A DNA stretch of 63,834 nucleotides, the filler included, from Reclinomonas americana ATCC 50394 (taxonomy: Eukaryota), in the NCBI GenBank assembly GCA_048213135.1. It is 16 parts of 16 records of this genome, joined end to end, with 100 filler letters (N's around TTAATTAATTAA, not from the genome) between each part and the next. Parts side by side here need not be neighbours in the genome. Positions count along the whole stretch, not along the records: positions 7,963 to 14,049 come from AFZH01018779.1; positions 14,150 to 18,539 come from AFZH01018781.1; positions 18,640 to 21,198 come from AFZH01018782.1; positions 21,299 to 31,219 come from AFZH01018784.1; positions 31,320 to 33,148 come from AFZH01018786.1; positions 33,249 to 37,017 come from AFZH01018787.1; positions 37,118 to 39,897 come from AFZH01018788.1; positions 39,998 to 47,876 come from AFZH01018789.1; 8 more parts are not named here. The stretch is one strand, 5' to 3'. Below, one piece after another: positions 9,001 through 59,600 of the stretch. Position numbers and translations under genes: made by a program. Below the pieces are notes generated by a model that saw only the letters and a program-made list of their open reading frames with translations, was not told the DNA's origin and ran no database searches. Position 1 is the first letter of the stretch. The number at the start of each line of letters is the position of its first letter.

Positions 9001-12000
9001 CTCACTGATACTTGCAGACCATTACCGGTCAGCCCCGCCACATTCGAGCACAGATTCGAGCCGATAATGACAAAAGACGCCTGATTCGCGCCACCCGCGA
9101 TCGAGAACACAAGCGTCTGACCAGTGTTGGGATCGCTCGATGACAGTGCTCCAATGATGCCATTCACGGCGAGAGGTGGAGTGTACAAGCTGGTTGACAA
9201 CGTCGGTGCCGACGGTATCACGTTGCCTGCTCATTCTTGTCAGCCACACGGTAGGTACGCGACAGCATTTTCGTGATGCACGCAACTCTCAGAAATCGAA
9301 AACGCGCTGCTGGCCGATCCACCTGCTCCATCGCTCACCAGCACCGCCAACTGCAAGCTGTTGCCGGTGAGGCCGGCCACGTTGGAGCGCAGCGTCGTGC
9401 CGCTGATATTGAACGAGGCTTGACTTGTGCCACCAGTGATTGTGTAGGTCAGCGTCTGACCCGTGTTGGCGTCGGTCGACGACAGAGTGCCAATCGTGCC
9501 GTTGAGGGCGAGCGGCGGTACGTACAAGGCAGAGGACAGAGTTGGCGCAGAGGGGTTGACGTTTGCTGCGCAACAGAAAACATGAGTCATCCAGCCACAA
9601 GATGTTGTTGACGAATGAAGTCGCCCACCTTCGCTGATTGTGAACGTAGTATTGGCCACTCCACCGGCTCCGTCGCTTACGCGCACAGTCACTACAAGTC
9701 CGTTTCCTGTGAGGCTAGCCACATTCGACCGCAGACTGGTGCCACTGATGTTGAATGAGGCCTGATTCGTGCCGCCCGCGATTGCAAAAGTCAGCGTCTG
9801 TCCAGTGTTGGGATCCGACGACGACAGCGTGCCGATGACGCCGTTCAGCGCCAGCGGTGGTATATACGCGGTGGAAGAAAGGAGCGGCGCAGTGGGCACG
9901 ACGTTGGCTGCAGGAAAGGTGAGTTGGTGCCAAAGAAGGGCGACAGTCACACACAAACGCACCTTCGCTGATGGTGAACATGCTGCTGGACACGCCGCCG
10001 GCTCCGTCGCTCACTTGCACGGTGACTTGCAGTCCGTTTCCGGTCAGCGCAGCCACGTTCGACCGCAAGCTCGAGCCACTGATGTTGAATGACGACGCAT
10101 CGGTGCCGCCGACAATGGTGAACAGCAGCGGTTGTCCAGTGTTGGGATCCGTCGAAGACAGCGTGCCAATCACGCCATTCATCACAAGCGGCGGTATGTA
10201 GGTGGACGTGGAGAGAGTTGGTGCACTGGGGGACACGTTGACTGGCACAACGAAAAAAGCAGAAGTGAGCAACTCACAGTATCACACACGCAATAACGAG
10301 ACCCCTTCACACCTTCGCTGATTGAGAATGTACTGCTGTTCGTTCCGCCAGCTCCATCGTTCACTAGCACGGTCACTTGCAGCCCGTTGCCAGTCAAGCC
10401 CGCCACATTGGAGAGCAAGCTCGTGCCACTAATGTTGAATGAGGCCTGGTTCGTGCCGCCCGTAATGGTGAACGTGAGCATCTGGCCAGTATTTGGATCC
10501 ACCGATGACAAAGTGGCAATCACTCCGTTCAGGGCCAGCGGTGGAATGTAGGCGGACGTGGAGAGTGTTGGCGCAGTGGGTATCACGTTTGCTGGTGAAA
10601 GGTGGAATAGAATGTTAATAGAACAACAAGATCCATGGCAAGCACAATAACATTCTCACCTTCGTTGAGAGTAAACGTTGTGCTCGCAGTTCCACCAGCT
10701 CCATCGCTCACTCGTACAGTCACCTGCAGCCCATTGCCCGTCAGGCCAGCAACATTCGACAGCAAACTTGTGCCACTGATGGTGAACGAGGTCTGGTTCG
10801 TGCCGCCAATGATGGTGAACGTGAGCGTCTGGCCAGTGTTGGGGTCTGTCGAAGATAGCGTTCCGATCATGCCGTTCAGCGCAAGCGGCGGTATGTAGGT
10901 GGACGCGGAGAGAGTCGGCGCAGTGGGTACCACATTGGCTGGCAGGATGAAGAAGCAGGAGTGAGTTTGAAACTCATCAAACACGCAGCTCAAGAGTACA
11001 ACAATCTTTCACACCTTCGCTAATGGTGAGTGCCGTGTTTGCCGCGCCACCTGCTCCATCGCTCACTTGCACGGTTACTTGCAGCCCGTTGCCCGTCAGC
11101 CCCGCCACATTGGAGCGCAAGGTGGTGCCACTGATGTTGAACGAGGCCTGATTTGTACCGCCACTGATGGTGTACGTCAGCATCTGCCCGGTGTTTGCAT
11201 CTGTCGACGCCAGCGTGCCAATCACTCCATTGAGGGCCAGCGGTGGCGTATACGTCAACAAGGAGAGCGTTGGCGCCGTGGGCAACACATTGGCTGTCAC
11301 CAACAGCAGAGAAGGTGAGAAGCAGGACTAGGACAAATAAGCGGCGCACAGCGCACCTTCGCTGATGGAAAACGTGGTACTATTCGTTCCTCCTGCACCG
11401 TCACTCACTTGCACCGTCACCAGCAATATGTTGCCTGTCAATGCAGCAACATTCGAGAAAAGATTCGTGCCACTGATATTGAAAGAGGCCTGATTCGTGC
11501 CGCCGATAATGGTGAACGTGAGCGTCTGACCAGTGTTTGGATCCGTCGAAGACAGCGTGCCAATCAAGCCATTCATCGCCAGCGGCGGCGGGTATGTGGA
11601 CGAGGAGAGTGTTGGCACAGTTGGTGTCACGTTCGCTGTGAGGCAACACGAGTAGCGTCAGCCGACGGAAACGTTAGTGTGAAGAGACGGATGGAGGGTG
11701 TAGATCAGTGCACCTTCGCTGATCGAGAACGTCGCACTCGCTGTTCCACCAGCGCCATCGCTCACTTGCACCGTCACTTGCAGCAGATTTCCGGTCAGTC
11801 CCGCCACACTGGAGCGCAGACTTGTTCCGCTGATATTGAACGAGGCCTGACTTGTGCCACCCGTGATGGTGTAGGTAAGCGTCTGGCCCGTGTTGGCATC
11901 GGTCGACGACAATACGCCGATGATGCCATTCATAGCCAAAGGCGGAATGTACGTCGATGAAGACAGAGTCGGTGCCGTCGGCAACACATTGCCTGTCAAC

Positions 12001-23546: not shown

Positions 23547-25210
23547 ATGGGACTTTCGTTGTCCCCCATCACACTCACACAATGGCCGGCCGAAGCAGCG
23601 AGTACCACTACTACCGACGACGACGACGATGAAGACGAGGAGGAGGAGGACGAGGAAGAAGAAGAGGAAGTCGATGCCGTGAAGCGCCACCAACAGCAAG
23701 TGTACGCGATGCAACAGCAACAGTACGCACGACAACAACAACAACAACAACAGCAGCAGCAAGTCGTCCCGCAGCAACGCGTCTCTGCGCCTGCACCTGC
23801 GCGTGCAGCTGCGCGTGGCGATGATGACGATGAGTACGGCGACGACAATGAGGACGAGGAGGAGTACGACGAGGATGATGACGATGACGACGATGACGAC
23901 TCAAGAAAAGGCAGCAGCAGCAGGAAGAAGAAGAAGAGCGCGGGTGCGTCGCGACGAGGCGCATCGGCGGCCGCGCCTGTGGGCTACGCGCATCAGCAGC
24001 AACAGCAGCGGAGAACGGCTGGTGCGTGCGTGTCTGTCTGTCAATTGTGTCTGGTTGTTCCTTGCGTGTGTGTGTGTGTCTCACTTTTGTGTGTGCAAAG
24101 ATGATGCCGCGGCTGCGCATCAGTTGCGGCTACAACAGCAACGAGAGCAGCAGCAGCTGGTCGATATGATGCTGCAGCAGGCGCAACAGGGCGACATTCT
24201 TGAGTTGCTCGGCACCAGCAAGGTCCGAGGAGGGTTTGCCTTGCTATCAACCCTTTGTTGTCTTTTTTGCTCACTCTCAAATGGCGCGAATGATGCAGGA
24301 TATCGTGTTTGTGCGCGACTTCCCTGGCTTTGCAGAGGAGTACTGGCCTTGCCAGGTGTGTGCGTGTGGCTCGATGCGCGCCGACATGGCGCGCCCAATG
24401 ACCGACCAACGCAAACACGCTCACTCGTGCCTTTTCTTTTTGACGCGTCTGCGGTGATGCAGATCATCCGGCAAATGACGGGCGTGCCTAACAACTTGCT
24501 GAAGCAGAAGCATCATCCCGACGATGTGCTGGTGCTTCCCTTTGAGCGGTTGCGTTCCCGCCATTTTTCGCATCAACCAATCACGCTGCGCTAAAGTGGG
24601 GAGAGACAGGTGGGAGCAGAAGAGGTGGGTGGCGGGAGCAGCGTGCGAGCAGTTCCCGGTCAAGTATCGTGAGTTCAAGTCGATGCCGGCGGGAGCGTTC
24701 TCCAAGAAATTCTGGGATGCCACCAACGAGGCCAAGCGCATTTACAATCAGCTGCTGGAGATTCAACGATCCGAGCGTTGCTACAAGTTGCGCCTCTCGG
24801 TTGTCATGCAGGTAGATCGAATAAGAGTTGAGGACTAAACCGTATCGGCGATGCAGCTGCGGAAAGGGCGATCGGGACGATCTGCTGTTGTTGTGTGAAA
24901 AGTGCAGTCGCGGATGCCACACGTATTGCGACGATCCACCGTTGCGTAGACAGCTGCTGCCGCTAATGGTGGTGCACCAAGAGTGCGGAGCTGATGTGTG
25001 TTTCTCGTGTGCAGACTGGCGCAAGTTCCGGAAGACGACTGGTTCTGTTTCAAGTGTCGCGATGGACCGGTGCGTGTGCCGATCATCGCCACTCCTTTGC
25101 ATGTACCGCTCATTTTGCATCTCGTGTGTGTGTGCGCGCAGTACAACCGCAAGCGACCAGGCGATGGAGAACTGGAGAAGCCTGGCAGTGTGAAGCGCCA
25201 AAAGACGTGA
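23547..25210 (+). CDS. PHD-finger protein with acidic/poly-Q N-terminus
   Basis: Spliced C4HC3 motif CSCGKGDRDDLLLLCEKCSRGCHTYCDDPP|LAQVPEDDWFCFKC. D/E tracts, poly-Q and RKKKK (NLS-like). Start codon uncertain (23547 or 23582). Confidence 0.85.
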
Positions 25211-25460
25211 GAGCCCGACTCCTCTTTCGCTCCTGTTTCTCCTCTTGCCTTTTGTGCACAATCTACTCTTTTTCCCTTCTCGTGCGCGGCGAGGCGCTGC
25301 TTTCACGCCCGATATCAACTTTTCACTTTTTCGTTGCCACTTGACACTCTCTTTCCCTTTCTCATCTCCTTCCTCACGGCTTTCTGCTGTAATCACCACC
25401 AATCCACAACCACACGCATGTTTGAGCATGAGATGTCGTTTATGGTCGTCTTGTATATCT

Positions 25461-28126
25461 TTAGTAGAATCCAGTGAGCAGCGCCTTGGAGACGTGCAAA
25501 CTGAGCGCGCGTCGCAGCAGCTCAATCTTGGCAGTGGGCAGCGGCTGATGTTGTGGATCGACCCAGTTGTGTGGCAGTGTTAGCGTATTGAGGATTCGCA
25601 ACAGCTCGGCAGCCTGAGCGGGCGTGAAGAGGAGTGTGCCGCTTTCGGTGGCCTGCAGCAGTGGCACACCCTCCAGCAGGAGGCCGAGCCAGAATTTCCG
25701 AGGCACGGTTCTGCAGTGCGTGAGTGAGCGCGAGGATATGCGGGAGACACGAATCTTTTTTTTCGACGCACCCGCTGGCCAACAGCTCGAACAGAATGGA
25801 GGCGGCCCTCTCACGCGCCTCGACAGTTGTGGCCGGATTCGTCACATCCAGGCGCTTGAAGTCCGCCAGTCTGCGCACAAGAGGAGGATCAGCATTGCCC
25901 CTACATGGAGGGGGCGGCCGCGACGCGACGCAACAGATTCACGAGGGTGAGGCGATCGCCGAGCTCCTGCAAATCGATTTCGTGGAACGAGTCGGCCACT
26001 GCAAACAAACTCGACGTGTCCCTCGTTGCAAAGTAGGATTCCTGCGGGAATGAGTGAGATCGGCGGCTGAAACACACAAAATCAACTGCACGGCAAAGCC
26101 ACAGTACCACAACGAGGTCGGCCACCTCGGCCACTTTGTCATAACATTGTCCGCGGACCAGCCACTGCAACGCCGGCACGTACCGCCGACACCGGATCTG
26201 CACGAGGACGGCATGAGAAAACGGCAGGCAAGAGACTTCCACCCATTCCGCGGACGCAACATATCGCTCGCCCACATCACGACACAGCTGATCGGCCACT
26301 GGGAAGAGCGATACCTCACAGCAGTATTGATACAAGCGGAGGGCTTTGGACTCGCTCGTCAGTCTCTGTGTGCGAATAATCTGCGAGCGACACCCATTCA
26401 GTCAGTGCACGAGCGGATTAAACTTGCACGAATGCATCTCCGCACCTCCTCTGCCAGTCGGGTGGCAAGCGGACTACCACACAGCCGTGCATACTCGGCA
26501 TTGACTCTCCACAAGTCGGGGCACGCAACCTTCAGTGCGTCGACGTATTTCTTCATAAAGTTGTCGTGGAAACTCTCTGCGAACGTGTGCGATTATGAGC
26601 GAAGCAGGAGACACGCAAGTGCTCACGACAAGCAGACGCACCACTGTCCGCGCCCAGATCCTCCACGAATCCAGCCGGTGTCAAAATGTCAGCCAAATGC
26701 GCCGAGAACCACGTGAAGAGGAAGCCCAATTCGGCCGAGTCGCCAGACGCCATGCGAGCCATCTCCGAGCAGCGGTGAAGCAGCGCTGTCACCGTGCCGT
26801 CAAAGACCTTGGCGAAGAGATCCGAGATTTTCTCGCTGTCGGCGAGGACGGGTTTCAGCCGGCGAGCCTCCTCCGCTGCCGGCGCCAAATCCTCAAAGCG
26901 GGACAGCGGCTTGCTGTGCAGCAGGCGCGCAATGGCCAACTCTCGCCAGTCCTGTGCGTACGCTTGCAGTGTTTCCATCTAGCCCCCCCCGCTCACACCG
27001 TCAGAGATGCGTCTGTGCATGGAGATAGAGGTAACGCAACTTGGCCCTCCAGAATGAGCAGGATCTCAAACAGCGGCGACTGCGACGGGGCACGCTGTCG
27101 CACTTTGCTGACGCCGTCTCGCCACAGTCGCCAGTTCGACTCGAACTGACGAGCGGCCACACGCGGGCGCACCTCGGGGTACTCCTGCAGCAGGCGAATC
27201 ACCTCGTGCAACAGCTGAAACACGCCAGTCAGCAACCCTGCCTGGCGCTCCACTCGTCCAAACACACATGTACACGCACCTCGAGTCCTTCATGCGTGTC
27301 GGACTCGTAGCGGTGGCTCGGATGCGCGCCAAGCAGTCGCAGTGCCGACGAAAAGAGACTCTCCCCGTCGCGTTTCGTGTCACCGAGCAGCACAAAGTGT
27401 CGCAACGCCTGCACGCCAACAGATCAACACACAACACAAGTCACACAAAGACAGACAGCAAGACAAACGTGCCTCCCAGTACGACAAAGGCAGCTCTTGC
27501 TCTGTAAGCGCGCTCTCCGCAGCCAACAACGCAGATGACAGGCTGTGTAAGACGGGCGTGTGTGTGAGAGTGAGAGAGAGAGAGAGCATGACAAGGGAGT
27601 CGCAAGAAGAAGAGGGTACCTCGCCGGTGCATCCGCCTGACTGTGCACCCAACGCAGCAAGTGCGGCAACACATACGAGTCGCCACTGCTCACACACACG
27701 GCCTCACACAAGTGCCACAGGCTAATGAAGAGATTCATGAACTCGACCAGACGATGTGTCTGTCGCGCGTCGAGACCATCCGCGACGAATCCTTGACCTG
27801 AGCGCAAGAGTGTGTGTGAGAGAGACAGTGTGCATGTGAGAGACAAGAGACTATGTGTGCGTTCACCAGAGACAACAGCGCGTTCGAGAGACAAGCGCGC
27901 AGTCTCCATCACTGAGCGATATGCAATCGACTGCGAGAGGAGTACATCGCCACTCACACGACCCTCTGCGAAAAGAGTGAGAGAGTGACAACAACAAGAG
28001 TGCCATGGCGCGCGCGCACACACACTGACCGCGGTCAAGCGCAGCCTGTGTGGATGCAAACACGGAGAATGCTTCTTGCACAAGCGCACGCAGTGGGCCA
28101 CACAAACGATGCGCACTTGCGGCCAT
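25461..28126 (-). CDS. NUP85: Nucleoporin Nup85 (Y-complex)
   Basis: LRALVQEAFSVF, LWHLCEAVCV..LLRWVH, SYWEALRHFVLLG, WRELAIARLLHSKP, WFSAHLADIL, VPRKFWLGLLLEGVPLL and the C-terminal LLRRALSLHVSKAL occur in the order expected for Nup85. Confidence 0.85.
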
Positions 28127-28157
28127 TTTCTCAACACCGACTGGGACTTTCTTTCAC

Positions 28158-30062
28158 TCATGACACGACGTTGCTGCTGCTGTCACGCTGACATGCAAGC
28201 GCGCTGGCCAGTCGATGCGCTCCGTCACTGTCTGCAAGCAGTGCGCGGATGCCGACTTGCACGACCGATCCAGCAACCGCAGTGCATTCCCATGTCAACA
28301 GCAGCGACGTTGACGGATCGTTCCAGCGTATGCGCGACGACGTGCGCAGCAGCGGGACCATGGCGTGCAGTGCGCGTAATGCACGGGCGACGAGCTGGAG
28401 CTGCTCAAGCGAGCGCTCGGGGGCGGTGTGACGTAGGAGACCGCTGCCGGTGGGCAGGCCGAGGTCGTTGCGCAGCGATTTGGTCCATCGCTCAATGTCG
28501 CCACTCGCACGTCGCACGCTGCTTTGCATGCGGCGGATCTCTGGCAGGAGACGCCAGTGACTTCGAAAGAAGGCCGACATGTCTTCGGCGGTAGCTGCCG
28601 CGTCGATGCACAGCAGGTCGACCAGGCGCTGCTCGCCGCTGAAACAACCGAATTCGCGACTCAGCGTCAACTCGAGGCCGCCGACGCCGCAGCCTTTCAG
28701 GAGCACGCGCATGTCCATCAACTTTTCCACACAGCTGCGCGCAGCTCAGGAACAAGCAAGTTTCGAGTTCGGTGCACTCACCAAGCCATCACGCACCTCG
28801 CCACATCCTTTGTGTCGCACCGGATGTGCACGTCTTCCAGATGCAGATGCGTCTTTAGCGTCGAGCACAGCTCCGCGACCTGCTTCACCTCGGCATTGTG
28901 TGCCGCTCTGGCCACACGCACTCTGTAGGCAATGCAGTAAGCAAAAGAACACCCAACAAGGAACGAGAGAGGAGAACGAGAGACGGCACAGCTCACCGAT
29001 CCGCCTGTAGCTGCAATGCGGACCGAAACACTCCGACTGTGGCGTTGCACGGCACGCGCACAAACAGCTCGGACTGCTGCTTCTCACTCTCGCCAGTGAC
29101 CAGGATCGGTACACCACGCCACAAGGATTCGTCGACTTGCGGAAGCCACTGCGCGAGCCCGGCAAGAAAGCGCCCAAACGCCGCCTCGCTCACCGCATCG
29201 GTCTTCACCAGCAGTCGCTGCCGGACCAGCTCATCCGCCAACACACCCCAGTCGACTGGCATGCCAACCCACCGCACGTATGAGAGACCAGCGAAAGTCA
29301 CACGGCAAGGGCAATGACACGCACGCGCGAACCACTATCGCCTTGCATCGTGCTGGCCTCGCGCTCTGCAAAATACTCGCGCAGTCGTGCTTGCAACTCC
29401 TCCCGCAACGACACCGTGGAGCGAGACACCGACTCGGCACCAGCTGCGCCACGTGGATGCTGTCGCAGCGCCCACAGTGCATCGACTTCCGCTCGTGGCA
29501 ACTCCACGCGCGCCTCCTGCTCAACCAACATCATCAACAATCCACCGCAAGAGGACAACCCCACGACAGCCGCAAACCAGCAACATCTGTGCCACACTGG
29601 CCATCACAAAAGAGCGCACACGACTCGCTTGCGCAGTTCCGCTGGCGACTGCGGGTGGATACTCGTGGCGGAACTCAAACGGTGTCCATCGCTCACCGCG
29701 CTGTGTCTCCGACTTGCTCAGGAAAAAGACAAAGTCCAACGCAGCCGGCGGTCGTCCATTGGCCGACCCGCCAACCCACGACAGCACCGCGTTGAGGCGC
29801 TTGAGAGACTCCTCATTGACTTGTCTGCGTGCATGCGATCAACATGTGTCGCTCAGTGAGAGAGAGAGAGAGTGTGTGTGTGTGTGTCCACGGACCTTTG
29901 CCGGGGCTGTGAGAAGAAGCGATCGGGGTGCACTTGCAGGAAGAAGCGACGCAAGGCACTGCGCAAGTGCGTCGACGCATCGTTGTCGACAGACGCGGTC
30001 GCACGACTTGCAAACAACCTCGACAAAGATGCACGTGATACCAACAGCAACCGGCTCGTCAT
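28158..30062 (-). CDS. TCAIM: TCAIM-like (DUF4460/DUF4461) mitochondrial protein
   Basis: Arg/Ser/Leu-rich presequence MTSRLLLVSRASLSRLFASRA followed by LRSALRRFFLQVHPDRFFSQPRQR|SVNEESLKRLN (DUF4460 HPD motif). Multi-exon to a stop at 28158. Confidence 0.8.
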
Positions 30063-30270
30063 CAGTCGACACGGTGGCGTGGTTAACACACAGACGAAGG
30101 AGGGGCCAAACATGCAATTTCATTTAACAACTAACTATCATCAAGAAAGAGAGCAAAACACCTAACATGCTGCAACAAACAACAAAGAAAACACACACAA
30201 AGAATAACTATAGAACCACTCACCACCCACAAACATAAACAAAAAAGCCAATCCCGGAAACCTGCACAAA

Positions 30271-31091: not shown

Positions 31092-31155
31092 CTACACACA
31101 TGCACATCTCATTTTTCAGCACCACTCGTCACAATACATAAACAAGCAATAACAC

Positions 31156-32965: not shown

Positions 32966-35900
32966 CGATCTTGCACCGGAATACCTGGTTCTTGCCGTCT
33001 CTGTCTCTCGCGATGCGCTTTTACGTTGTTCTTTGGTCGGCAATTCTCTCTCCGGCTCTCCTCTCCTCTTCCCCCTTCGATGATTGCTTGGTACTTGTCG
33101 TCACTGTCAATCGCAAAGTCTGCTTCTCGGTTCCTGTCGCGCACTTTTNNNNNNNNNNNNNNNNNNNNNNNNNNNNNNNNNNNNNNNNNNNNTTAATTAA
33201 TTAANNNNNNNNNNNNNNNNNNNNNNNNNNNNNNNNNNNNNNNNNNNNGTTGTTCTTTGGTGGCAGTTCTCTCTCCGGCTCTTCTCTCCTCTTCCCCCTT
33301 CGATGATTGCCTGGTACATGTCGTTACTGTCAATCGCAAAGTCTGCTTCTCGGTTCCTGTCGCGCACTTGTCTCGATCTTGTTGAATCGTCTTGTACAGC
33401 GTTTTACACATCTCCCTCTCCCTCTCCCTCTCTCTCTCTCTCAGTGCCTGCTTCTTGACGCATCGTCGCAATGCTCGTTCTTCGCTGATCGTTCTCGTAC
33501 GCCCTGTGGCATTCACAATCACCGTTCTCGCTCGGTATCTACAGCCGACATACCTGCTTGTTAGTGTCACTCGCGATGCACAAAGATTGCTCCTCTGTTG
33601 CCTTTTTCTGCGATCGCTTGCTTCTTGTTGTCTGTCTGTCTGTCTCCCATTCTCTCTCTCGCGAAAGACTTCAATTCTCGTCTGTCGTTGGCTTTCTCTC
33701 GCCCTTTCGTCGCCCTCTCCGGTTTGCCCACTCATCAAATCCTCATCAAGTCACTTGGTCACTCTTTGGTTCACGCACTCAGTTCACCTCCGTCAATCGC
33801 GAGGGATCTAACGATTCTCACTTGTCGCACTCGTGAGTTCTGTCGATCGTTATGCAGTTTCTGCGTTGCCTCCATTTCTCTCTCTGTCTGTATCTCTCTC
33901 CTTTCTCACCTTTCCTTATTTCTCATAGCCTTCCCCCTTCCCTTCCCCTTTCTTCCCCCATTTCTCACATACTCCCCCTTCCTCCCCCTTTCCTCCCCCT
34001 TTCCTCCCCTTCCATTCCCCCTCTCAGTCTCCCTCCTCGGCGTGGGCCTCCTGGAACACGTCGGCAGCATTGTGAAAAAACTGCTGGCCAACACGCGAGA
34101 ACGCGACCGCCCCACCCGCGAGGAACTCGCCAAGGTCTTCCACGCACTCACCGAGCTGGTGGTGTGCGCTGCCGTGGACCACCAGCCCTCCTCCAGCGCC
34201 GAGCATGGAGTGGTGGTGGTGGTGCTGCTGGTGGAACCGCTGATGAAGAAGTTGAGCACGCGCAATGTGGACACGCAGCGCACCGTGTGCATGTGTCTCG
34301 ATCACGTGTTGCAGGGTCTCTCGGAGACGGTGGTGGCTGCGGCCGGTGACCAGTTGCTGGTGGCCGTGCGCACGTTTCTCCAGCTTTGCAGTTGCGTGCG
34401 CGAAGTGAGTGGTGGTTTTTTTGTGATGATCGTGATGACTCACTTGTACGGAACACACGCACAGCCAAGCACATTCTCACCTGCACCGAACGGTTCGCGG
34501 TGGCGCAACGCATGGTCGAGGTGTTGCGCATGCACCTCACCGAGCAGCACGTGCACATCCTCATCGATCACTGCATTCAGACGTTGGCGGTATGTAACAA
34601 CTGACACGCACGTACACACACACGCACGCACACGCACACACACGCACACACACACACACTTACACAACTCTTGAGTATCATGTATGTGCATATATGTGTG
34701 TGTGAGAAAAAGAATGAGAGAAAAGCAAGTGCTGCAAGATGCCTTCTTTCTTCAACCAAATGATTCGTCTGATATGTCGATGCGCAGCCACCCTCGGGCT
34801 TGGCGGCCACGGTGGCAGGTTCCGCGAGTGCGCTTGCGGGCTCCGCTGGCACCTCTGCGGTTTCGGCGCAGCTCACTTCGGAATGGGACGCACAACACGG
34901 GGCACTGGAGACGCTGTACACACTCTGTTTGGGGCTGCCACTGACGCAGCTTAGTAGGGTTCGTGTGTCCAGTCATTCACTCCCGAGCCAGTTGCCCAAT
35001 CTCATTAATGTTGCAGAGTTCGTCGTCAGCACCACCATCGCCGTCGCTCGCCATGCGCGCCTTGCAAGAGCGGTCATACGACATTCTGACCGAGGGCAAC
35101 CGGGCGCGGCATCACAAAATACGCAGCGTGCGGGAGACGGCCGCACAACTATGCGCAGCATTGTGCGAGGTCTATGCTTGCGGAAGTGATGTTTGTGGCA
35201 GGCAAGCAGTTGACTGAATCACTCAATCCCTTCCTCGTGGTGCAGATGTTTCCGCACTTGGCCGTGGGTGAGGATGCGGGGCTGTTGGACACGCTGGATC
35301 CGTTGCCTGCACGGCGGCGTTCGTTGGGCAAGGTGTGAGGCATATTCAACAGGGAGGTTGTGATGCTCTCGTCCTGAATCTTTGCTTGATCCCCACAGAG
35401 CAAGTCACCCTCGAGTGGTGGCCGACGAGTCAAATCGGCCGACGTGGAGATTTACGTGCCCGGCCGTCACGATCCACTCCATTTCGACGCGAGCAAGTCC
35501 TCATCAACGACCACCACTGCCGCCGCCGGCGGCGATCATGCCCTCGAGAAGGCGGTGTTTGGGACTGGTCCCGAAACGCCAGCTGCACAGGTGGCGGATA
35601 TCGAGGCCACTGCGTTGACTCCGGTCTCGTTTCAAGTGGACGGCGCCGAAAACGGCTCACCTCGCGCACTCACGCCGTCACACGCTCGCTCTCAACCACC
35701 TGCCGCTGCATCGCCACCACATCCAGCACCTCCTGCACTTCCCGCCAGTGCACCTCCTGTTGCCGCCTCTCGACCGCAGCCTGTACACGCACCTGTGTCA
35801 CCACCACCACCACCCATCAGCAGCGAGACGTCGGCGCTGTCGAGCGGAATCATCACGGCGGCGGCGCATGGCAAGTTCCAGGTGCGTGTGCCTTCTCTGC

Positions 35901-48723: not shown

Positions 48724-51700
48724 TCACTGTGCCAGAGGTGGAAAAGCATTATAATCACACGCAAAATCAAGCTTGTCTTCCTTCCACACGTACCCGTCCA
48801 GATGCGTTCGCTGCGACACCTCCATTCGTCCCACATTCGCCTCAATGCCGGCTTCGTAGCGGAACTTGGCGAGACCAGTGGACACGCGTCGACGCACCAG
48901 ACCCGATTCGTGAACGTATCGCACCGACGGCGCCAGCTGCACGACACGACGTTAAGTCAATAACAGGAGAAAGAAAGTACACAAACCAGGCAGACGCGCA
49001 GACCATGCTGCCGAGCAGACTCTTGACCGCCGTGGAGACGACACAAAACGGGATCAGCGCCTTCAGCTCTTGCAGTGTCGGCTTGAGTGAGGCAGGCAGA
49101 CGGCGTCGAAGAGAACGGCCGCGCCACCAGCTCTGAATGCGAGTGGCAGCCAGCTGCTCCTGACGCTCCTCGGCGTCGTCGCGCACCTCTTCCAACTCAG
49201 CCAAACTGTCACGACAGTGAGTGCCACGCGGCTACAATGTCTCTCTCTCTCTCTCATGCAAACCTGAGCATTCGTTCGTCCACCACGCGGAGCAGCAGCA
49301 CCTTGAGCAGTGTGCCAAACTTGACGCGATCAACCTCCTTGGCGGGATCCACGTCGGGAATGTGCACTCCTGTGGCGAATGATAAGAGAGGCGCGTCGAG
49401 GCGATACAAGGAACGCCACACACTGTGCGTTACCTGCAGTCTCGCCCTCTCGTGCTGTCAGCAAGTCGCGCACGTGGTGGAGAAGGCGCAAATCGCGTTT
49501 CAATGTGGACACGGCAGCCGTGCGGACTTGCCACATGACGCTCTCCACCTCCCAGTAGGGTGTCTGTTTGGGGGAGAAGTGATGAGAGAGGAGGAATCCT
49601 CGGTCGGCAGTGTCACTCTCCAAGTACATCAGTTTCCACGAAAGCGTGAAGAACAAAGAGTTTCTCATCCTTCCAATCTGCAACCTCCCCACTACCGATC
49701 TGATCTTAAGTGCATAAGTCTCTATAGAGGATGAAACTGATGAGTGCAGCTATGCAATGCACTCTTCTCTCGTCTCTTTCCCTCTACACTGAGAAACAAG
49801 AGAGGCCTCTCCTCCTCCTCCTCCTTCTCCTCCTCCTCCTCCTCCTCGCCCTCTTTCTCCTTCTCCCCCTCCCTTCCCCCTTCGCCCCTTTCCCTACATA
49901 CCTGTCGAGTAAAACCCAGGGGCTTGCCGATGCGGAAGAGCAGCCGTCGCACGTCGTGGAGACGAATCTTGCCAGTGGAGCGACGATCAAACTCCATCCA
50001 CACGGTTTGGAATCTGTGCGAGGCGCCAAAGAAATCAGTTGGCCAACCCTGCGCGTCACGCACCAGCAGCAACAGTGTCGCCGCGCAACGATTTCAGAAC
50101 AGACAGCGGCACAATCATTTCAGCGTCGGCTCGAGCGAAAGCACGCGAAAAACGTTCCAGCAGCACGGCAATGAACAGATTGAGGAAGACAAACGTGCCG
50201 AGAAACGTGAACGTCACCCAGTACACGTACGGCCTGCGAATGATCACCAGGAGAACAAGTCAGTGCGACGCGGCGCTCTTGACGACAGCATAATGAATGC
50301 GACGCAACGCCACAGGTACACCGCAGTGTTCCGGATCGCAGTACGGGTACTTGACGGCGGTCTCGTGCATCAACGTGTTCCACGATTCACCGGTGAGACA
50401 ACGAATGAGGGCAAAGAGCGCCTGTGGCGACAGAGGATTGAGGGCACTAGAGCACAATCAATGATCCATCGCACATACCAATACTCACCCGAGGGAACGT
50501 GCGGAAATTAGTTTGGCGCGACAGAATGGCCTGGTCGCGCACCGAGCCAAACAGTTCCATTCCGGCCACCGCGTACATGTAGAGCAGGAGGGCCAGCAAG
50601 GCCGTTACGTTGAGGCATGTCGGGATGGCACCACTGCAGAGAGAGAAGGGAGAAAGAGTTGGTGAGCAACTGAGCACAATTGTTGGCAATGAAATGGAGA
50701 ACGCAACAGCAGCACATTGAGCACACGACGGAGGCGACGCGAACCACGGAAGGCACGGAACAAGAAACCGAGTCGGAAACAGCTGAGCACCGAGATGGGA
50801 GAGCCGGCCAGCTCCAGACCTGCGGAAGTGACTGATTCAGCAACAATATCTTCACAATAGACGGAGAAATAGCACTGCTTTCCATTTCTCTCACTTCCAC
50901 TACACTCTACTTGTAACTTTGGAGCTCTTGTATCACACACCCAGGGCTGCATAGCGACACCTTCTGTAACACCTCAGCTCTTGCTTCACGCGACTCTCAC
51001 TTCCAACACGCTCTGTTCTCAGCCACATCAAGAGCGGCCACACACTCTCTGATGCCGCGCGCTCCCTATCCCTCTGTATCGTGGTATCTTTCCTTGCCAC
51101 ATGTCAGGGCATCAGCTCACACACGCGCGCGCTCTCTCTATCTGTCTTGTTGTCAGACAGATCGCCCTCAGTGCGTACATGTCTCACTCTCTTTTTTGCC
51201 CTTCCCAGTTGTGGTAAAGCACAGTTCTACCTCATCCACCTCGCACTGTGAGCACATCCCACTTCTCAACCACATTATCAAGTGGCCACATTGCAAGCAC
51301 GCACTGACACACGCAAGTCCATGGGAGTGAATTGCTCCACCTCATCCATCTCTCACTGGATCACATCCTGCTTCACCCCCTCCCTTCTCCTCTTTCCCCT
51401 CCCTTCCCCTCTTCCCCCTTCCATCCCTCTTTCCCCTCTCTCCTCCCTTCTCCTTCTCACCGGACGCCACAAACGAGAACACCAGCAGCACCGTGTCGAC
51501 AACATTCCACATGTCGCGGAAGAAGGCCTGCGATCGCAACGCCAGGTACCGACAGACCAACTGCGAATCGCGACACACTTAGGGGAACGGCACCAAAGCT
51601 ACTTTTGACCGATCATGCATCTCACCTCCGCGGCAAACACGATCTGAAACAGACAGTACAGCACGTAGCTGGCCGTTGTAAAGGCCGGTGGCTGTTCGTT

Positions 51701-54700
51701 CACTTGTAGGCACATGAGCACCGTCAGCAGCAGCAAGTTGGCGTAAATGGCCTGCACACAAACAAGCGAAACCGGTGAGTGTCTGCTCCGAACTTCCTTT
51801 GAGGTCTATTCCCGCCATACCTGCTCAAACACCGGGTGCGCCAGCAGTTCGATAAAGTACGCTCTCCGATACCGCGAAGTGCCATGCAAAAGGCGCGGAG
51901 GTCGAATCTGCTCGGCGATCTGCTGCAACGACACCCACGCTTTCTGGCTCTCTGTGAGGAGCGCCAGGCCGCCGACGTTGCTGAACGCGTCGAGAATGAC
52001 ACCGAGAAACTGCGTCTCGCACCGCGTGAGCTACATCACACACGAAGGAGCTCATGAGAGGTGCGAAACGCACCAGTTGCAGGATGAAAAAGGTGCCGAG
52101 GACCATCAGTGTAACAAAATAGAGCTGAAAGTAGTACGAATGGTCGCGCTTTGGCTGCAGTCCGCGTCCACTGATATCGGTCGCCGACAACATGACGTCG
52201 CTCCAGCCTGCGCACCAAAAAAAAGATTGCTGAGAACCACTAGATGCTCCAAGGCATCTAAAACAGAATCCAGGCAAAAGCTCTACCCGCTTATCGACCA
52301 CTGCTTCCATTCGACTGTGCGCGACTTTCTCTTCGCACACACATTCACGCTTGCTGTCTGCGCACTATTAACTCTCCACTGCTGCTGTCATCGTAAATGC
52401 CGATGGCACTCTCACGCTCACATCTGTCTCATGCTGCTTCTTTTGTTGCTGTAAAACTGTTACGAAACCACCATTCGTCGCCATCAGCAACCTGCTGTCG
52501 CTCACTTTTCCCTCTCCGTCAATGCACAGCACACAAAAGTGTCGCTCTTCACCGCACTAGAAAAGATACACACGTATCCGCACACTCAATAGCCTTTCAT
52601 CGCTACTTCTGTGCACTACATCCGAATGCGACACTCTCTCCTCTGTCACTCATTTAACCTCGCCCTTGTAGCGGTTCCCCTCCACCTCCCCCTCGTATCC
52701 TTTCTCTCTCATCCCTTCCCCCTCCCACCTTCCACCATCACTCTCATCCCTTCCCCCTCTCATCCCTTCCCCCTTTTTCACCTTCCTCCGTAATGCACTC
52801 CCAGCACGTGAGAATGGCATTGGCAATCGAGTCAAACGTCTCGTACGGCACCGTCCACGCCCGCGGCATTGCCAATCCGGTGTTGGGATCCATCACTGTT
52901 CCCACGCACTCATCTTGCGTGCCGACATCGTCGTTGCACGAGGCGAAGCGACCGCGGAAGAGGAGAACGCCTAGTGCGGCCATGCCAAGGAGGAAGAGCA
53001 AGAAGAGCATCATCAGGCGAACAATGGCCGGCAGTGATGACAGCAGGCCTTGCAGCACTTGCTGTGGAGGGGAAGTTGCATGAGTATTCACATTAAAATC
53101 AATTGCGAAAGAAAAAACACAACTCTCATTCCCGTGGCGCGGCGAATGAGTCGCAATGCGCGCACAAAGCGAATGACACGGAGGAATCCCGTCACTGGAG
53201 TGTTCACCAGTGCCACGTCGAGCAGGTAGATCTGGTTTTGCACAAATACGTGAGTCTTCGTTACTCGGGCGCTCGCCGCGACAATCGTTCAACGTCACCA
53301 GTGCCACCACCGTATCCAGTCGATTCCACGGATCGCCAAAGTATCGATACCAACCGACAGCAATCAGACGCAGCAGAATTTCCGCCCAGAAGAGCGCCAT
53401 CAAAATCGCATTGCAGATTTGGAAGATTTGGCGTTGAGAGGGATCTGCGCAAACATGTAAATGAGATCAGGTTGTCGACTCGCAGACACCGGGAATGAAG
53501 GCATACACAGACCACTGCGCGATGCCTGCGTCTCGAACGGCAACACGAGGCAGCTGAGGACAATGACGACCACCACGCACATGTCGAACCACGGTCTCGA
53601 CACGATGCGATCAATGACCCACGCGCGTAAACTGCGCCATCGGCGCACCGCCTTGGGCCAACAGAGGGCATGCTGACCAGCTACACGAGTGGCAATTGAG
53701 ATGGATTATGGACTCAGCACAGCACGTGCTGCTCGACAAACCTCTGCAGAAGCGATACCAGCTGCGAGCGCACGAACCCTCCGGCAACGCCATCGACTCC
53801 AGCGTCTCATCATCGTCGTCCGAGTGCATGTCAGTGTTACAATCGACAGTATGCAGTTGACCACCGGCGCCCGACTGCATGCACGACCACGAGCCCACGA
53901 ACGTCAGCGCAGGACACTCACTTGGCAAGTACGCGGCAATCGTACGTACCCTCCACCCGGCCTCCAGATCCGTCAGCGAGAGTGGCTCACGCGGACTACC
54001 AAGCAGCGACTGCGAGGCATGCGACTGGTCGCTCATGGCGGGCGACGCCACACTGGCCGGCGATTGCACAGAGCCAGTGGGCGGTGACGCGGCAGATGCA
54101 CCTGGCGCGAGCGGCGACGCGACAGGAGGGGATGCAGCAGCAGCAGCAGCAGCTGACGAGGGCGGCAATATTGCAGCCCTTGGAGAGCCACGAGCAAAGG
54201 CAACAAGCGGCGAGCGTGGCGATCCAGTCGGCGACAGTGACAGCGCGGCGGAGCGAGCCTTCGGAGATCCCATGTCTGCAGCGCACAGCAGGTGAGTGGC
54301 CCAACTGACTCACATTAAAGTAAAATTCGCTTCGTCCCAAACACACCATCGGCAAATCGAACGGCCACGGGTGCAGTGGAGGTCGGCATGATATCGACCA
54401 CTGTTCGTGATCGTCGCCGACCACCACCCGCTGCCGTGGGCGACGTGGGCGAGTCACCGACTTCAGGAGCAGGAGTAGCTGCGGCTGCCACGGCCGCCGC
54501 GGCGACCTCCTCCTGCCCGAGAACTGGACATGAAAGGGCGAGTCAGCACACACATCTCCCACCTGCTGTATCGCATCATTTACGCAACTCGGCTCAAGAC
54601 GACGAGCGCCACTCGCCAGACTCACGGCACGACGGCGCCCACCGCCGCCAGTCGACGGAACGATTGTTGGTTGCAGTGGCGCATTCGTGCGCAGTCCTGT

Positions 54701-56401
54701 GGCACAGATCGTGAGCAGGGAGAAACGAAGCACCGCTCATGCACCGTGTGCCAACACACCTCCCAACAAGACAGCACGACGCAGACGCGCTGCCAAGCTG
54801 ACGGTGTTCGACGTCGGCGACAGTGCAGAGGCACCCGGAGCTGGTGCCGCCGGTGCACCACTGGCGCTGGCAGCTGACGAGGCAGACGAATCGGTTGCCG
54901 GCGGCGAAAGTGCGCGAGCGGCAAGGCGCGCCGCAAGTCCCTTGCCGAGTGTCGACGCGCGAGTCCACGGCGATGCACCCTCTTGCACAAGTGCCGAACG
55001 CACCGGAGAACCCTGCAGAATATTGGATGAGCGGATGAAGCAAGGACTGTCGTAGAGAGAATGCAACTGCAGCTGCCGACGACGCCGGCGCGCTCGACTC
55101 TTCGGGCGACATTGGCGGTGCCGCGCTCTTCAGCGTCGGCACGGAGAGCACCGATGGACCGCGAATGTATGACAGCAGTGCATAATTGCCCTGCTCATCA
55201 CGCGCAATGCCCAACTTGCGCAGTTTCATGTGCTTCACGCCGAGCTTGTCGACTGCGTCGTCCATCAGCGACGCATCCGTGCTGTTGTGGATTCACACAG
55301 TTAGCAGACACCCTTCCCTCACACTCGCCAATCATCACACACCGGAAACTGCCGTTGTTGGAGCGCAGCGACTGATTCATCCACATGTTGCTCAGTTGTC
55401 GCAGAGTGTCTTGTTCGCGCTTCTCTGTCATCAGCGACTCCAGCGTGAGGCCGCGTCGAATCTGCTCGTACTGCTCGGCTTGCTTCTGCAGCTTCACACG
55501 CTCCGACAGCTCCAGACCCTCCATGATGACGGCGATAAAGACCGTCAACAGCACATCTACACGCACGAACCCATCAGTTACCAACCGCGAAAGCGCGAGA
55601 GTGGCGAAGACATGAGCCACGCAACAGTTGGTAAAGGCGAACACGAGGACAAAGTAGGCCGGAGCGAGGATGGTGGACGACGACACTGTGGCCGAGGCCA
55701 GCACGAAGTTCCATCCGTCACCCACCAACAGCACAAAGACGGTGGTGAGACCACCGTAAAAGGTGTCAAAGTTGAAGCGTGCCGAGTCGCCATTCTGCGC
55801 GAATCAAGTCAACTCATGCTGCACGCAAATTACACACACGCCCCGAGCGTACTCACCGCCGCCTGAAGATCACCACCAAACAATTGCATGCCAAACAAGG
55901 CCGCCACAACAATCATAAACAACGCAAACAGCAGCAGGCGAGCGCAGGCGGCCAACGAAATGACCACGGTTTCCTGCACGGCGTGTTACTCCAATATCAT
56001 GACAAGCATGGACACTTTCCTCACTCACCAGCACAGATTCTAGGAACGGCAGCTCCAGCGCCAGTCTCGCAATGATCAGCACGCGAAACATGGTCAGATA
56101 CCAGTACTGGATACAGAAGTGAGCGCGTGCACATTAGAAACGACAATGGTGATTGAAGTACGCACATTATCTCCACCGCCGACGGCGAGACCCGGTAAGC
56201 AGAGTACCAACAGGACAAACTCGAAGCGTTGTTTCTCTGCGCCCCCACCAACACATATGCCGCGGTGAGCCTCATTGTAGAAGGCGCGACGAATGCAGCA
56301 CACGCAACGATGCCGAAAGTACTGCCGGAAACCGCGTCGAGCAATCACTTTCAGGACCAGCTCCACCCCGTAGATCGCGAAGAGGATGCGCTGGCAAATC
56401 T
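48724..56401 (-). CDS. Four-domain voltage-gated Ca2+ (Cav/Nav superfamily) channel alpha subunit, domains II-IV plus EF-hand and IQ; domain I missing (gap)
   Basis: S5 FGMQLFGG, LGVLLFRGRFASCND and AGMELFG. P-loops RFNFDTF..LLVGDGW, FDSIANAILTCWECITEEGW and LIRCLTGESW. S4-III FLRVIRFVRALRLIRR, S6 FLNLFIAVLL, EF-like WMEFDRRSTGKI..GKPLGF and IQ AATRIQSWWRG. Confidence 0.93.
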
Positions 56402-56627
56402 CTGCGTACTCGGCAGTGAGCAGAGGAGGAGAAAGGTGGGAATGAAGGAGGATAAGGAGGAGGGGAGGAAGAGGAGGAGGAGGAGGANNNNNNNNNNNNN
56501 NNNNNNNNNNNNNNNNNNNNNNNNNNNNNNNTTAATTAATTAANNNNNNNNNNNNNNNNNNNNNNNNNNNNNNNNNNNNNNNNNNNNCTATTTTGCGTGC
56601 TGGTGGCTCACGTTTTTGTTCTCACAG

Positions 56628-59600
56628 TTGTTGGTGTGCCGCTGGCATTGTCGGAGCTGCATGTGCTTGACGCTCCGTCTACTTCTCCTCCTTCTTTGTC
56701 TCCCGTGCCGGCGCCAAAGCTGCGGCGGACGGCGGTCCGTGGTGTCATGCTGCGTGGCAATCCGGTGGACATTGTGTTCAAGTTGGTGAGACACTCGCGT
56801 CCCCTTTTCTTTTCATTGCTATGTGTGTGCGTGTTCTCATCGGCGACGCAGTCGACGGCCTCGGCGCTGGACACCGGCTTCAACCATCTCGACCCGCACG
56901 TGCGACTGGTGTTGTCGGCGACGGTCACTGGCGCGGTGCCGGCTGATGCGACATTATCATGGCGTGTCACGGCGCTCGGTAAGGCCGCGCACCTCTCTCT
57001 TTCTTGTCATGGTGGCTGGGTTCTCATTGCTTGCGCAGACGGAACGCCTGTGCCGGTGCAAGTGCCGAGTGCGTCGATTGAGTTGGTCCCGCAAGGCAAG
57101 AAGCAGCCGCCGGCCTTGGTGGCGCAGGCAGGCGCCTTTGCCGGCGGCAAGTCGTACAGCGCGCAGCTTGTGGTTGATGACGAAGGTATGCATTCTGATC
57201 CTTGAGTGTGGCGCACAACTCAGACTCCTTCTTCTCCCTCCCTCCCTCCCTTGTTGTGCGTACGCATTTTTCGCTGCTATTTCTCTCCCTCCCGGTTCTT
57301 CCCCTCTCGCCTTTTCTTCTCTCTCTCTCTCTCCATCTCTTTCCATCTGTCGCCCTTGCCTATTCCCGTATCTCTGCGTTTTCTCTCTCACTTTCTCTCT
57401 TTCTCTCTTCCCCTCGCTTCCCCTGTCTCCTCCTGTTTTTTCTATCTGTTCCTCTCGTCCTGTCGCGTTCCCATTCTTTCACTGTCACCCAAATCTCCGC
57501 GCGCGCTCTCTCTCTTCCTTCTCTCTGTCCCCTCCCTTCCTCCTCCATTCCTTCTCCCGTTCCTCTCCCGTTCCTTCCCCTTTGCTCTCCGTTCCTCCTC
57601 CCGTCCCCTTTCCCCCTCCCTTCCCCTCGCTTCCCTCCCTTCCCCCTCCCTTCCCCCTCCCTTNNNNNNNNNNNNNNNNNNNNNNNNNNNNNNNNNNNNN
57701 NNNNNNNTTAATTAATTAANNNNNNNNNNNNNNNNNNNNNNNNNNNNNNNNNNNNNNNNNNNNTGGCGAGCTGTCGACAGAGTTCACATTCAAGGTGGAC
57801 GGCTACACGGACGCCGATGGCCCCCGTTGCGTAACGTGCACGCAAGGCGATGCTTATTTCTTTCTCACCCTTTACCCGACTCTGGCAGTGTCGTTTTCAT
57901 ACTTTTTCGTGGAGCCGTCGACGCAGCTGATGGTGAGTATGGCGGGAGAGAAACCGCGCCGGGAAATGGACGCCTCTTTGCCCAACCCCCCTTCGCCCCA
58001 CTTTGTGCAGTTGACACTGGAGGTCTCGTCTCAGCGGACCAGTCGACTGCATACTCTCCCCGCTGGCAAAACTGGCGATGCGTATCAGCTCACCGTCGGC
58101 GTGATTATCCGCGACGTTTATCAAGCCAGGTTTTGGTCGTGTTGCATTTTTTCTGCTGTCCCCCACTCCTCACTCCGCCTCGTCAGCTTCACCGTCACCT
58201 CCACAGTTGTCGTACGGCCTGTTATTGTGTCGACGGGCGATGTGGTGGGCGCCATGGTCATGCAAACCGATGTAGTCGTCAGTTTGCTGCGCACCCGATT
58301 GGCGACCGACATTGTTGTCGCCGCCGGGCGCATGTCTGTGCTTGCCAGCACGCTGTGGACCCACGCTGACCTCGCTGTGTCGCAGCCGGGCACGAGCGTC
58401 AGTTGCGTGGTGGGGTTTCTTTCATTTCCCCCCCCCCCCCCGTCCTCTGATGATCTCACTCGCGGTGCTGCAGGTGATGCATTGGACAATGCAGTCATGT
58501 ACATGGCCCAGCAGCTTGTGCAGGTGGCCTGGGCCGTGCCCACTCGCCAGTTCCCCGACAGCGTGCCCACCGTGTTTGCGGCCTGCATGGCAGTGGTCGA
58601 GTTTCGTTGCTGATTTGCGCCATTTTCCTTTCCTGAGTCGTAATTGACTCTTGTACACACACGCAGTGTGGCGGCCAATCTCACGCCGCGCTCCGTGTCA
58701 CGGACCAATGCGCTCCTGGCGGTGTCCCTGGCTGCCAACGCCCTCAAGAATGTCAGCCAATTCATCCCAACCTCGGTGGTGTCGGTACGTGTGGATCGTA
58801 TTTTTCTCAGCAGCGCTCCTTCCAAACAATGTGCATCGCAGACGGTCATTCACTCGGCGGACAAGTTGGTGGCGTTAGCGGCGCGAGATCGCGTATTGGA
58901 TACGTGGGGCTACGCTCGTCTCCTCCAGCAGATTCGCGACACGCTGAAAACGCTGGTGGCCGGCATGGTCGCGCTCTTGGTGAGTTTTGCGCAACGAGGC
59001 TTGTNNNNNNNNNNNNNNNNNNNNNNNNNNNNNNNNNNNNNNNNNNNNTTAATTAATTAANNNNNNNNNNNNNNNNNNNNNNNNNNNNNNNNNNNNNNNN
59101 NNNNCCACCGCAGCTTCTCTCTGCTCACACCGCGTGCCACACTAGAGACCAATCCGTATCGCGGCATTAGCGACTCGCGCAACAAGTTGTCCGCCCCAAT
59201 TGAGTCAATGGTGGTGAGTAGCGCGACAGCGGGCGAGGTGCACAAACTCGAGGAGCCGTTCCTGCTGGAGATTGGATCGCAGAATCCGGAAAACTATCAT
59301 CTGCTGGTGCGTCTCTTCATTGCCTCTATCATGGCCTCCTTTTGTTTCTTGTGGCTCACTCGTGCATCGGTGCGCTCAGCGGGACGCCGTCGAGTACGTG
59401 GAAAGCTGTGGCATGCGCGGTAGTTCGTCTGGCCCGCGCATCACAGCTGAGGATCGGCTCGTGCGCCTGGAGCCGCAGCCTAGCTGCGCCGGCTTGCGAC
59501 CAGCCAATTACACCAAGCCGATTGACGATCTCCGCCTGTGTGTCTACTGGTTGGAGGTCGAGCGCACCTTTGGCACAGACGGCTGCACGCCGATTCTGCG

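Follow-up and report, generated by a model that had tools for sequence, protein, structure and literature searches.

The window analysed here, the whole 63,834-nucleotide stretch from Reclinomonas americana ATCC 50394 (GenBank assembly GCA_048213135.1), is eukaryotic DNA with a G+C content of about 56% that carries several multi-exon genes, and the element under study is the 5' splice site (donor) of the introns that interrupt them. Beside ordinary donors, many introns of these genes begin with GTTGCGT, the same motif moved one base downstream, and these sites appear to constitute a genuine second common donor class with the consensus (C)(A)|GUUGCGU(G), to which roughly one in four of the short introns in the window is predicted to belong. 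The class is real and unusual, and its description as offset by one base is right; a preliminary description of this DNA, made from the sequence alone, is thereby confirmed and, if anything, understated the case. Genes were assigned with Pfam by scanning the stop-free open reading frames (ORFs) and the exons of the window:

4.3-14 kb, minus strand: two tandem Ig/cadherin-like repeat genes
7965..14048, minus strand: the tandem-repeat gene that serves as the internal control, with one domain per exon and 14 boundaries examined
14.2-16.5 kb, plus strand: a divergent SAHH-like gene
38.5-47 kb, plus strand: a gene for a giant fn3 protein
48-56.4 kb, minus strand: a four-domain voltage-gated cation channel with GPHH and IQ
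plus strand: a GPS-motif protein (the REJ/GPS gene)
minus strand: a Nup85-like gene
at the intron 24941..25014: a PHD finger

The offset donor motif and its introns

The preliminary description had placed 24 donors of this kind in the window, and each of the 24 positions bears the motif assigned to it on the strand assigned to it, with GTTGCG at 21 positions, GTTGAG at 39726, GTTACG at 20815, and GTTGTG at 53123. As a word, GTTGCG is not over-represented (57 copies in the window versus 55.4 expected from shuffles), so any signal must lie in the context of the word. The context was read with a donor-agnostic parser that scores codon usage, acceptor, branch-like motif, and intron length, requires GT..AG ends, and is blind from position +3 on; 13 introns of the repeat gene at 7965-14048, including the one at 9286, served as the training set for its 3' models. 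GTTGCG is the top donor hexamer of this parse at three stringencies (10/60, 7/36, and 5/24 introns, with 16 of the 60 falling in the training gene), against a background of 57 among 8145 GT hexamers (0.7%; binomial P = 1.5e-11 for 10/60), and the same parser run on the reversed sequence as a control returns 7 introns, none of them with GTTGCG, despite 56 copies of the word. The enrichment of GTTGCG in the window thus concerns intron starts and not the word as such.

Parses that model the donor point the same way. Specifically, an independent-position donor matrix gives GTTGCG at 9 of 72 introns, and a two-class parse, which took its seeds from the agnostic parse and none from the earlier list, predicts 128 introns in which GTTGCG leads with 23 and recovers 19 of the 24 claimed donors. 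Under a strict definition of the class (GTT, +5 not G, +6 G), its share is 30/128 or 29/160 predicted introns, in line with the proposal that it is mainstream in the window. The claimed introns stand in part: 20 of the 24 are recovered by unseeded parses (56308 in a subsequent run), and those at 39726, 47606, 18798, and 20815 never are; the parser forbids N gaps, and the first three of these four run into them. The parser is known to err: it picked the wrong donor at 53165 and the wrong acceptor for 27040, and it took (GT)n tracts as donors. Three simpler procedures were set aside: ORF-bridging is useless as an intron test because in G+C-rich DNA any dinucleotide lets some 13% of its sites through (1110/8145 GT sites, 13.6%, versus 12.6-14.2% for eight other dinucleotides), codon-only parses are too weak, and an over-permissive intron score that over-predicted more than 1000 introns was discarded.

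The introns and candidate donors of the class are as follows, with lengths in nucleotides (nt); "recovered" refers to the parses above.

15266..15326, plus strand: GTTGCGA, 61 nt, phase 0, SAHH-like gene; frame restored, unseeded parse, junction residue non-discriminating
15799..15864, plus strand: GTTGCGC, 66 nt, phase 1, SAHH-like gene; unseeded parse and alignment to PDB chain 3g1u_A
24941..25014, plus strand: GTTGCGT, 74 nt, within the PHD finger; donor recovered, Pfam PHD match
34391..34464, plus strand: GTTGCGT, 74 nt; recovered, frame restored
38978..39051, plus strand: GTTGCGT, 74 nt, giant fn3 gene; donor-agnostic parse
39175..39239, plus strand: GTTGCGT, 65 nt, fn3 gene; donor-agnostic parse
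39726..40234, plus strand: GTTGAGT candidate donor of an intron spanning an assembly gap; motif, acceptor cgcag at 40234, N runs inside
41769..41848, plus strand: GTTGCGC, 80 nt, fn3 gene; donor-agnostic parse
43844..44253, plus strand: GTTGCGT, 410 nt, fn3 gene; donor-agnostic parse
47606..47612, plus strand: GTTGCGT candidate donor with its acceptor lost in a repeat and gap; motif only
57826..57888, plus strand: GTTGCGT, 63 nt, REJ/GPS gene; recovered
58402..58473, plus strand: GTTGCGT, 72 nt, REJ/GPS gene; donor-agnostic parse
58601..58666, plus strand: variant A|GTTTCGT, 66 nt, REJ/GPS gene; donor-agnostic parse
5567..5650, minus strand: variant A|GTTTCGT at a repeat-exon boundary of the second cadherin-like gene; agnostic parse, sister junctions
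9227..9286, minus strand: A|GTTGCGT, 60 nt, at a repeat-exon boundary of the tandem Ig/cadherin-like gene; 13 sister-repeat introns at the same phase-1 position
18792..18798, minus strand: GTTGCGT candidate donor of an intron running into a gap; motif only
18859..18922, minus strand: GTTGCGT, 64 nt; recovered
20742..20815, minus strand: GTTACGC candidate donor with an uncertain end; motif and candidate acceptor CTGAC...AAAAG, recovered by no parse
21539..21606, minus strand: GTTGCGT, 68 nt; recovered
25871..25934, minus strand: GTTGCGT, 64 nt, Nup85-like gene, beyond the earlier list; parse
26979..27040, minus strand: GTTGCGT, 62 nt, Nup85-like gene; contiguous Nup85 profile coordinates
48278..48343, minus strand: G|GTTGCGT, 66 nt, the sole claimed site with G-1; donor-agnostic parse
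50234..50308, minus strand: 75 nt, channel domain IV before S6; recovered, homolog alignment with a one-residue loop gap
50634..50707, minus strand: 74 nt, channel domain IV S4-S5; ungapped alignment to P0001, P0009, and P0010
53062..53123, minus strand: GTTGTGT, 62 nt, channel domain III S4-S5; ungapped alignment to 8/10 homologs
54524..54588, minus strand: GTTGCGT, 65 nt, channel gene, beyond the earlier list; parse
55557..55625, minus strand: 69 nt, channel S6; junction codon Y, ungapped alignment to P0008 and P0004
56237..56308, minus strand: 72 nt, channel S2-S3; ungapped alignment to P0001 and P0006, recovered

The unlisted sites at 54588 and 25934 (minus strand) and the two GTTTCGT sites at 5650 (minus strand) and 58601 (plus strand) look equally real by the parse and junction evidence given for them. 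The class introns sit among ordinary introns of the same genes, and for seven junctions either ungapped homology or paralogous repeat exons settle the exact boundary. Within the tandem gene (7965-14048), each domain is one exon that ends with the same I-S-E codons and is followed by a phase-1 intron, and at this identical codon position the boundary has the form G|GT(G/A)... in 13 of 14 cases and A|GTTGCGT in the remaining one (9286); similarly, the adjoining cadherin-like gene has four boundaries with G|GTG... and one (5650) with A|GTTTCGT at the identical phase-1 place. The spliced peptides of the channel gene give gap-free alignments with distant Cav homologs over the junctions at 55625, 50707, and 56308. 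At 53123, a 65-residue ungapped alignment spans the junction in 8 of 10 homologs and scores 51 bits, versus 36 bits for the rival donor at 53165 that the parser prefers, and at 50308 the alignments to homologs continue over the junction apart from a one-residue gap in a loop. Moreover, the exon upstream of 15799 ends opposite I294-V295 of PDB 3g1u_A, and the splice keeps the N..H spacing of C-N-I-G-H ungapped. At 27040, the upstream exon covers positions 184-250 of the Nup85 profile with one residue over and the downstream exon covers 256-353 from its residue 5, so the two exons are contiguous across the junction. At 24941, the Pfam PHD match stops at the exon end and the phase-2 splice resumes with W-x-C-x2-C.

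Of the residue arguments that had been put forward for a cut at the GT and not one base later, that from channel S6 is borne out, since the junction codon at 55625 supplies the Y of a conserved N-Y pair. The SAHH argument, which relied on a Y|N junction, fails: the residue lies opposite D in the PDB alignment, and a cut one base later would supply D, a match that is given little weight because the protein differs from SAHH at most nearby positions.

Apart from the donor, the class introns are predicted to be genuine major-type GT-AG introns, ordinary in length, branch region, and acceptor. All 21 with defined ends run from GT to AG, as U2-type introns do; 19 of the 21 have a branch-like CTNAY in the last 40 nt, whose A lies a median of 20 nt from the 3' end versus 19 nt in ordinary introns; 17 of the 21 end in CAG; and the median length is 72 nt versus 64 nt. 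The base that follows the acceptor is A in 8, G in 5, T in 4, and C in 4 of them; introns where it differs from G include 55625, 53123, 15266, 38978, and 41769.

Position counts over the 24 claimed sites define a class that is more rigid than the ordinary one. In the exon, -2 is C in 14 and -1 is A in 10, T in 7, C in 6, and G in only 1, as the preliminary description had stated when it excepted a single site from the rule that -1 is not G. In the intron, the counts are T 24 at +3, G 23 at +4, C 22 at +5, G 24 at +6, T 20 at +7, and G 12 at +8. Ordinary donors taken from a parse with the exon positions unscored (n=119) show G-1 80, G+3 101, G+5 109, T+6 80, and G+7 54, with A 35, C 44, T 39, and G 1 at +4; outside the repeat genes, 55 of 91 ordinary donors with G+5 have G-1. 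Positions +4 to +8 of the class (GCGTG) therefore mirror ordinary +3 to +7 (GNGTG), which is the one-base displacement that had been described. The couplings expected of such a displacement were found in the agnostic set, where T+3 goes with G+6 (15/18 versus 7/42, P = 1.6e-6) and with a loss of G-1 (4/18 versus 35/42, P = 1.1e-5), and G+5 accompanies T+3 in 2/18 versus 33/42. Position +7 also separates the claimed GTTGCG sites from the unclaimed copies of the word (T in 18/21 versus 10/36, Fisher P = 2.8e-5). The extra base is only ever T, as the agnostic parse used 10 of 57 GTTGCG copies and 0 of 196 copies of GTAGCG, GTCGCG, and GTGGCG (P = 1.7e-7).

Some further donor-like sites stand beside the class. 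The GTTGCGT copies at 26529 (minus strand) and 36029 (plus strand) are read through as the codons V-A-C and M-L-R, respectively, and followed by ordinary donors; the copy at 26529 has an exon G before the motif, so the motif alone, at least with G-1, is insufficient for a donor. The parser also calls GTTGCA(T) donors without G-1 at 55067 (minus strand), 58141 (plus strand), and 15487 (plus strand), which may be weaker members of the class with A+6. Among the ordinary donors, A, C, and T are nearly equal at +4 with G in 1 of 119, and G outnumbers A at +3 by 101 to 12, a profile that is unusual for positions supposed to be read by a standard U1 end. A compensation test on the ordinary donors (non-G at -1 versus C at +4) was uninformative, the set being contaminated by (GT)n tracts.

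Recognition of the offset donor

The reading that we favour, and that we hold to be as apt to prove right as wrong, is that U1 recognises the offset class in a shifted register. The register would lie one base toward the intron, with pairing as though the exon ended one base later: intron G+1 would stand in for the exon G-1 of the ordinary G|GUGNGUG, U+3 would replace U+2, G+6 and U+7 would replace G+5 and U+6, and the sole mismatch would be the position equivalent to ordinary +1. Because the chemistry would still need GU, cleavage would stay before GU, one base upstream of the site that the register implies. The motif would be read by the 5' end of a U1 that may be ordinary or specific to the lineage, after which U6 would have to accommodate one extra nucleotide. 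From such a register it would follow that G-1 is dispensable, that the extra base is T, and that C-2 and A-1 are enriched, these two being the shifted-register partners of U1 positions 11 and 10. C-2 (14/24) and A-1 (10/24) are enriched over the exon background (P = 0.005 each); at -2 and -3, the ordinary donors of the window have no preferred base with which class -1 and -2 could be compared. ViennaRNA folding against the standard U1 5' end, taken as the sequence printed in PMC4856993, gives the shifted register wherever extended pairing is found (11 of 24 sites) and never a bulged one.

Several results weigh against shifted pairing to U1. The predicted pairing to the standard U1 5' end is very weak whatever the register, averaging -1.65 kcal/mol versus -6.44 kcal/mol for ordinary sites. 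The standard U1 would pair better with A than with the near-invariant C+5, which is present in 22/24 sites versus 35/91 for C at ordinary +4 (P = 1.9e-6), and GTTGAG is used in 0 of 40 cases by the agnostic parse. The G-1 deficit exceeds what the shift model predicts (P = 0.006). Moreover, the ordinary donors used for comparison are parser output, with some false positives in (GT)n tracts. The feeble pairing, the C+5, and the depth of the G-1 deficit keep alive a variant U1-type RNA or a contribution of U6 or of a protein.

The first of these, a dedicated variant U1-type small nuclear RNA (snRNA) or other guide RNA with a 5' end exactly complementary to CAGUUGCGU, would read the class and leave G|GUGNGU to ordinary U1; we consider it unlikely, though it deserves to be taken seriously. 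It would account for the tightness of the class (G+4 23/24, C+5 22/24, G+6 24/24, T+7 20/24) compared with the free A/C/T at ordinary +4, and for C+5 and U+2, which standard U1 leaves unexplained and which would pair with an exact complement; the near-zero duplexes predicted with the standard end, and the co-evolved snRNA reported for Entamoeba in a preprint (10.1101/2022.06.08.495308), are also in its favour. Such an RNA, however, explains the motif by construction, and no Rfam family, those of snRNA genes included, reaches the gathering threshold in the window. Exon-side pairing is loose as well, with A-1 in just 10/24, and a shifted ordinary U1 also explains every conserved position but +2 and +5. 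With the same low expectation we regard the wider proposition that the major spliceosome has two parallel readers of the 5' splice site here, the variant one serving the rigid class of about a quarter of introns, with the scissile bond one base off in the helix.

Less probable still is a bulged U, by which U1 (and U6) would keep the ordinary register on both sides and loop out one U of +2/+3. The motif is indeed the ordinary GUGCGU plus one U, and an adjacent pair of U's forms a degenerate bulge, energetically the cheapest kind by nearest-neighbour rules, which counts in its favour. The register also exists in human, where 68 sites were predicted and 54 retained after curation (Roca et al. 2012, via Tan et al. 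2016, PMC4856993). The bulge nevertheless predicts the ordinary frequency of G-1 (55/91), and the class has 1/24 (P = 8e-9), so the retained exon G-1 pairing of that register is rejected; no other base is bulged (0/196), and duplex folding never picked a bulge. Shifted recognition fits better than a bulged U.

Two further accounts would remove the phenomenon, and even taken together they have very little chance of being right. Under the first, the junctions are mis-set and both cuts fall one base later (G|UUGCGU and CAGN|) in the ordinary register, with the frame kept. The frame cannot separate the two readings, the mRNAs are identical wherever G follows the acceptor (e.g., 9286, 39175, 50308, and 58402), and at 15266 the alternative yields the D of SAHH chains. 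Introns of this kind would, however, have to start with UU and end with CAG plus an arbitrary base (A8, G5, T4, C4 over 21 introns), and it is the GT-AG reading that puts CAG where ordinary introns have it (17/21) and gives the conserved Y at 55625, where the alternative gives C; a version that leaves the AG in the exon adds a residue that would interrupt the gap-free alignments over 55625, 56308, and 53123 and make the repeat at 9286 too long. These points make mis-set junctions highly improbable. The second and weakest, an artefact of assembly indels (an extra T in GTGCGT), of motifs arising by chance within long random ORFs, or of copies of a single mobile intron family, could draw on the gapped draft assembly with its 15 spacers (30 N runs) and microsatellites at several of them and on the 13% or so of any dinucleotide that passes ORF-bridging in GC-rich DNA, and is barely credible given that an inserted T would keep G-1 (seen in 1/24), that the motif-blind parse shows enrichment where the reversed control shows none, and that the class introns are unalike past their first 9 bases. 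For introner-like mobile introns in particular, full-length similarity is absent: with the first 9 bases removed, blastn of 25 class introns gave only chance matches of 10-15 bases.

Host genes and window features

The adjacent tandem genes (7965-14048 and 4302-7149, both on the minus strand) encode Ig/cadherin-like domains of about 92-94 residues, each exon coding for a single domain and each domain being followed by a phase-1 intron; their Pfam matches, to Big_9 and Cadherin, are weak, and loci that match a repeat exon in a metagenome scan are only 30-42% identical. The channel shares just 22-39% identity with its Cav homologs, the Nup85-like exon has four weak matches in a full HMMER search, and the ESM Atlas yields none but generic fn3 clusters. 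The SAHH-like gene (14200-16500, plus strand) is split into numerous short exons, and word-based protein searches with two of its exons returned no relatives; its product may be catalytically inactive, because most positions around the substrate-binding stretch differ from adenosylhomocysteinase chains in the PDB alignment. The product of a predicted multi-exon gene at 18804-21196 (minus strand) ends in a membrane segment with G-M-N, which may be like that of CorA-type magnesium transporters.

The window is also crossed by spacers of the form N44-TTAATTAATTAA-N44, in 15 identical copies that make up the 30 N runs between 2380 and 62682. Genes run across at least one spacer, which argues that they are scaffold gaps and not joins of unrelated contigs. 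Microsatellites of (CT)n, (GT)n, and (GA)n flank several of the spacers inspected (e.g., 14050-14149, 18540-18639, and 39898-39997).

Relation to known splicing systems

Non-canonical pairing registers are already known from human minigene work, at around a percent of sites; what would be new here is a one-base-offset donor at roughly one intron in four, with a different and more rigid motif. If this is a main pathway, it would offer a natural system for studying what sets the cleavage site where the GU conflicts with the recognition helix and how U6 handles an extra nucleotide, and it would test the co-evolution of splice-site consensus with snRNAs. The consequences for annotation are practical: GTTGCGT gets a poor score from position-weight donor models built on ordinary sites, standard gene finders would probably miss or misplace about a quarter of the introns in the window, and large multi-exon genes, such as the four-domain channel and the fn3, cadherin-like, and REJ/GPS genes, would break. 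No GTTGCG-type donor class was found among the top matches listed in literature searches, which figure-only logos or supplements would escape; the related work that came up concerned human registers, tunicates, diplonemids, and Entamoeba.

Two known types can be set apart from the class. Like U12-type introns, it is a minority class with a tighter 5' motif than the majority and occurs in the same genes. The U12-type donor motif is unrelated to GTTGCGT, and membership is ruled out by that donor, by the ordinary CTNAY branch and acceptor, and by a frequency that is far too high. The diplonemid donor, given as G/GTATG in PMC12621601, does not fit GTTGCGT either. As for the ordinary class of the window, with G|GTGNGT and a CTNAY branch, it resembles the green-algal type.

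The closest likeness is to the shifted (+1) register sites of mammals (Roca & Krainer 2009, as summarised by Tan et al. 2016, PMC4856993). In both, GU is kept at +1/+2 and the remainder lies one base downstream, with G+6 and not G+5; the exon G-1 is not needed; and the cut is made at GU although U1 pairs one base off, which is here proposed. The differences concern frequency, sequence, and strength. Human shifted sites are rare, since according to PMC4856993 validated non-canonical registers of every kind sum to 3119 of 201,541 5' splice sites (1.5%), and here the class makes up about 30/128 predicted introns; the motif here is GUUGCGU with a near-invariant C+5, whereas the human shifted form is A-rich; and the predicted U1 pairing averages -1.65 kcal/mol here versus -6.5 kcal/mol for the human test site in the table of the same paper. 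The human bulge +2/+3 sites share with the class the look of an ordinary donor plus a U after GU. Unlike them, the class is missing G-1 (1/24) and admits only T at the extra position.

Lastly, lineages with a rigid or transformed consensus offer a precedent, in that the Entamoeba preprint (10.1101/2022.06.08.495308) reports a changed donor consensus with a co-evolved snRNA, so that a changed consensus may go with a changed snRNA. Such lineages use a single consensus, whereas the window holds two, offset from each other by one base and used in the same genes and even in sister repeat exons.

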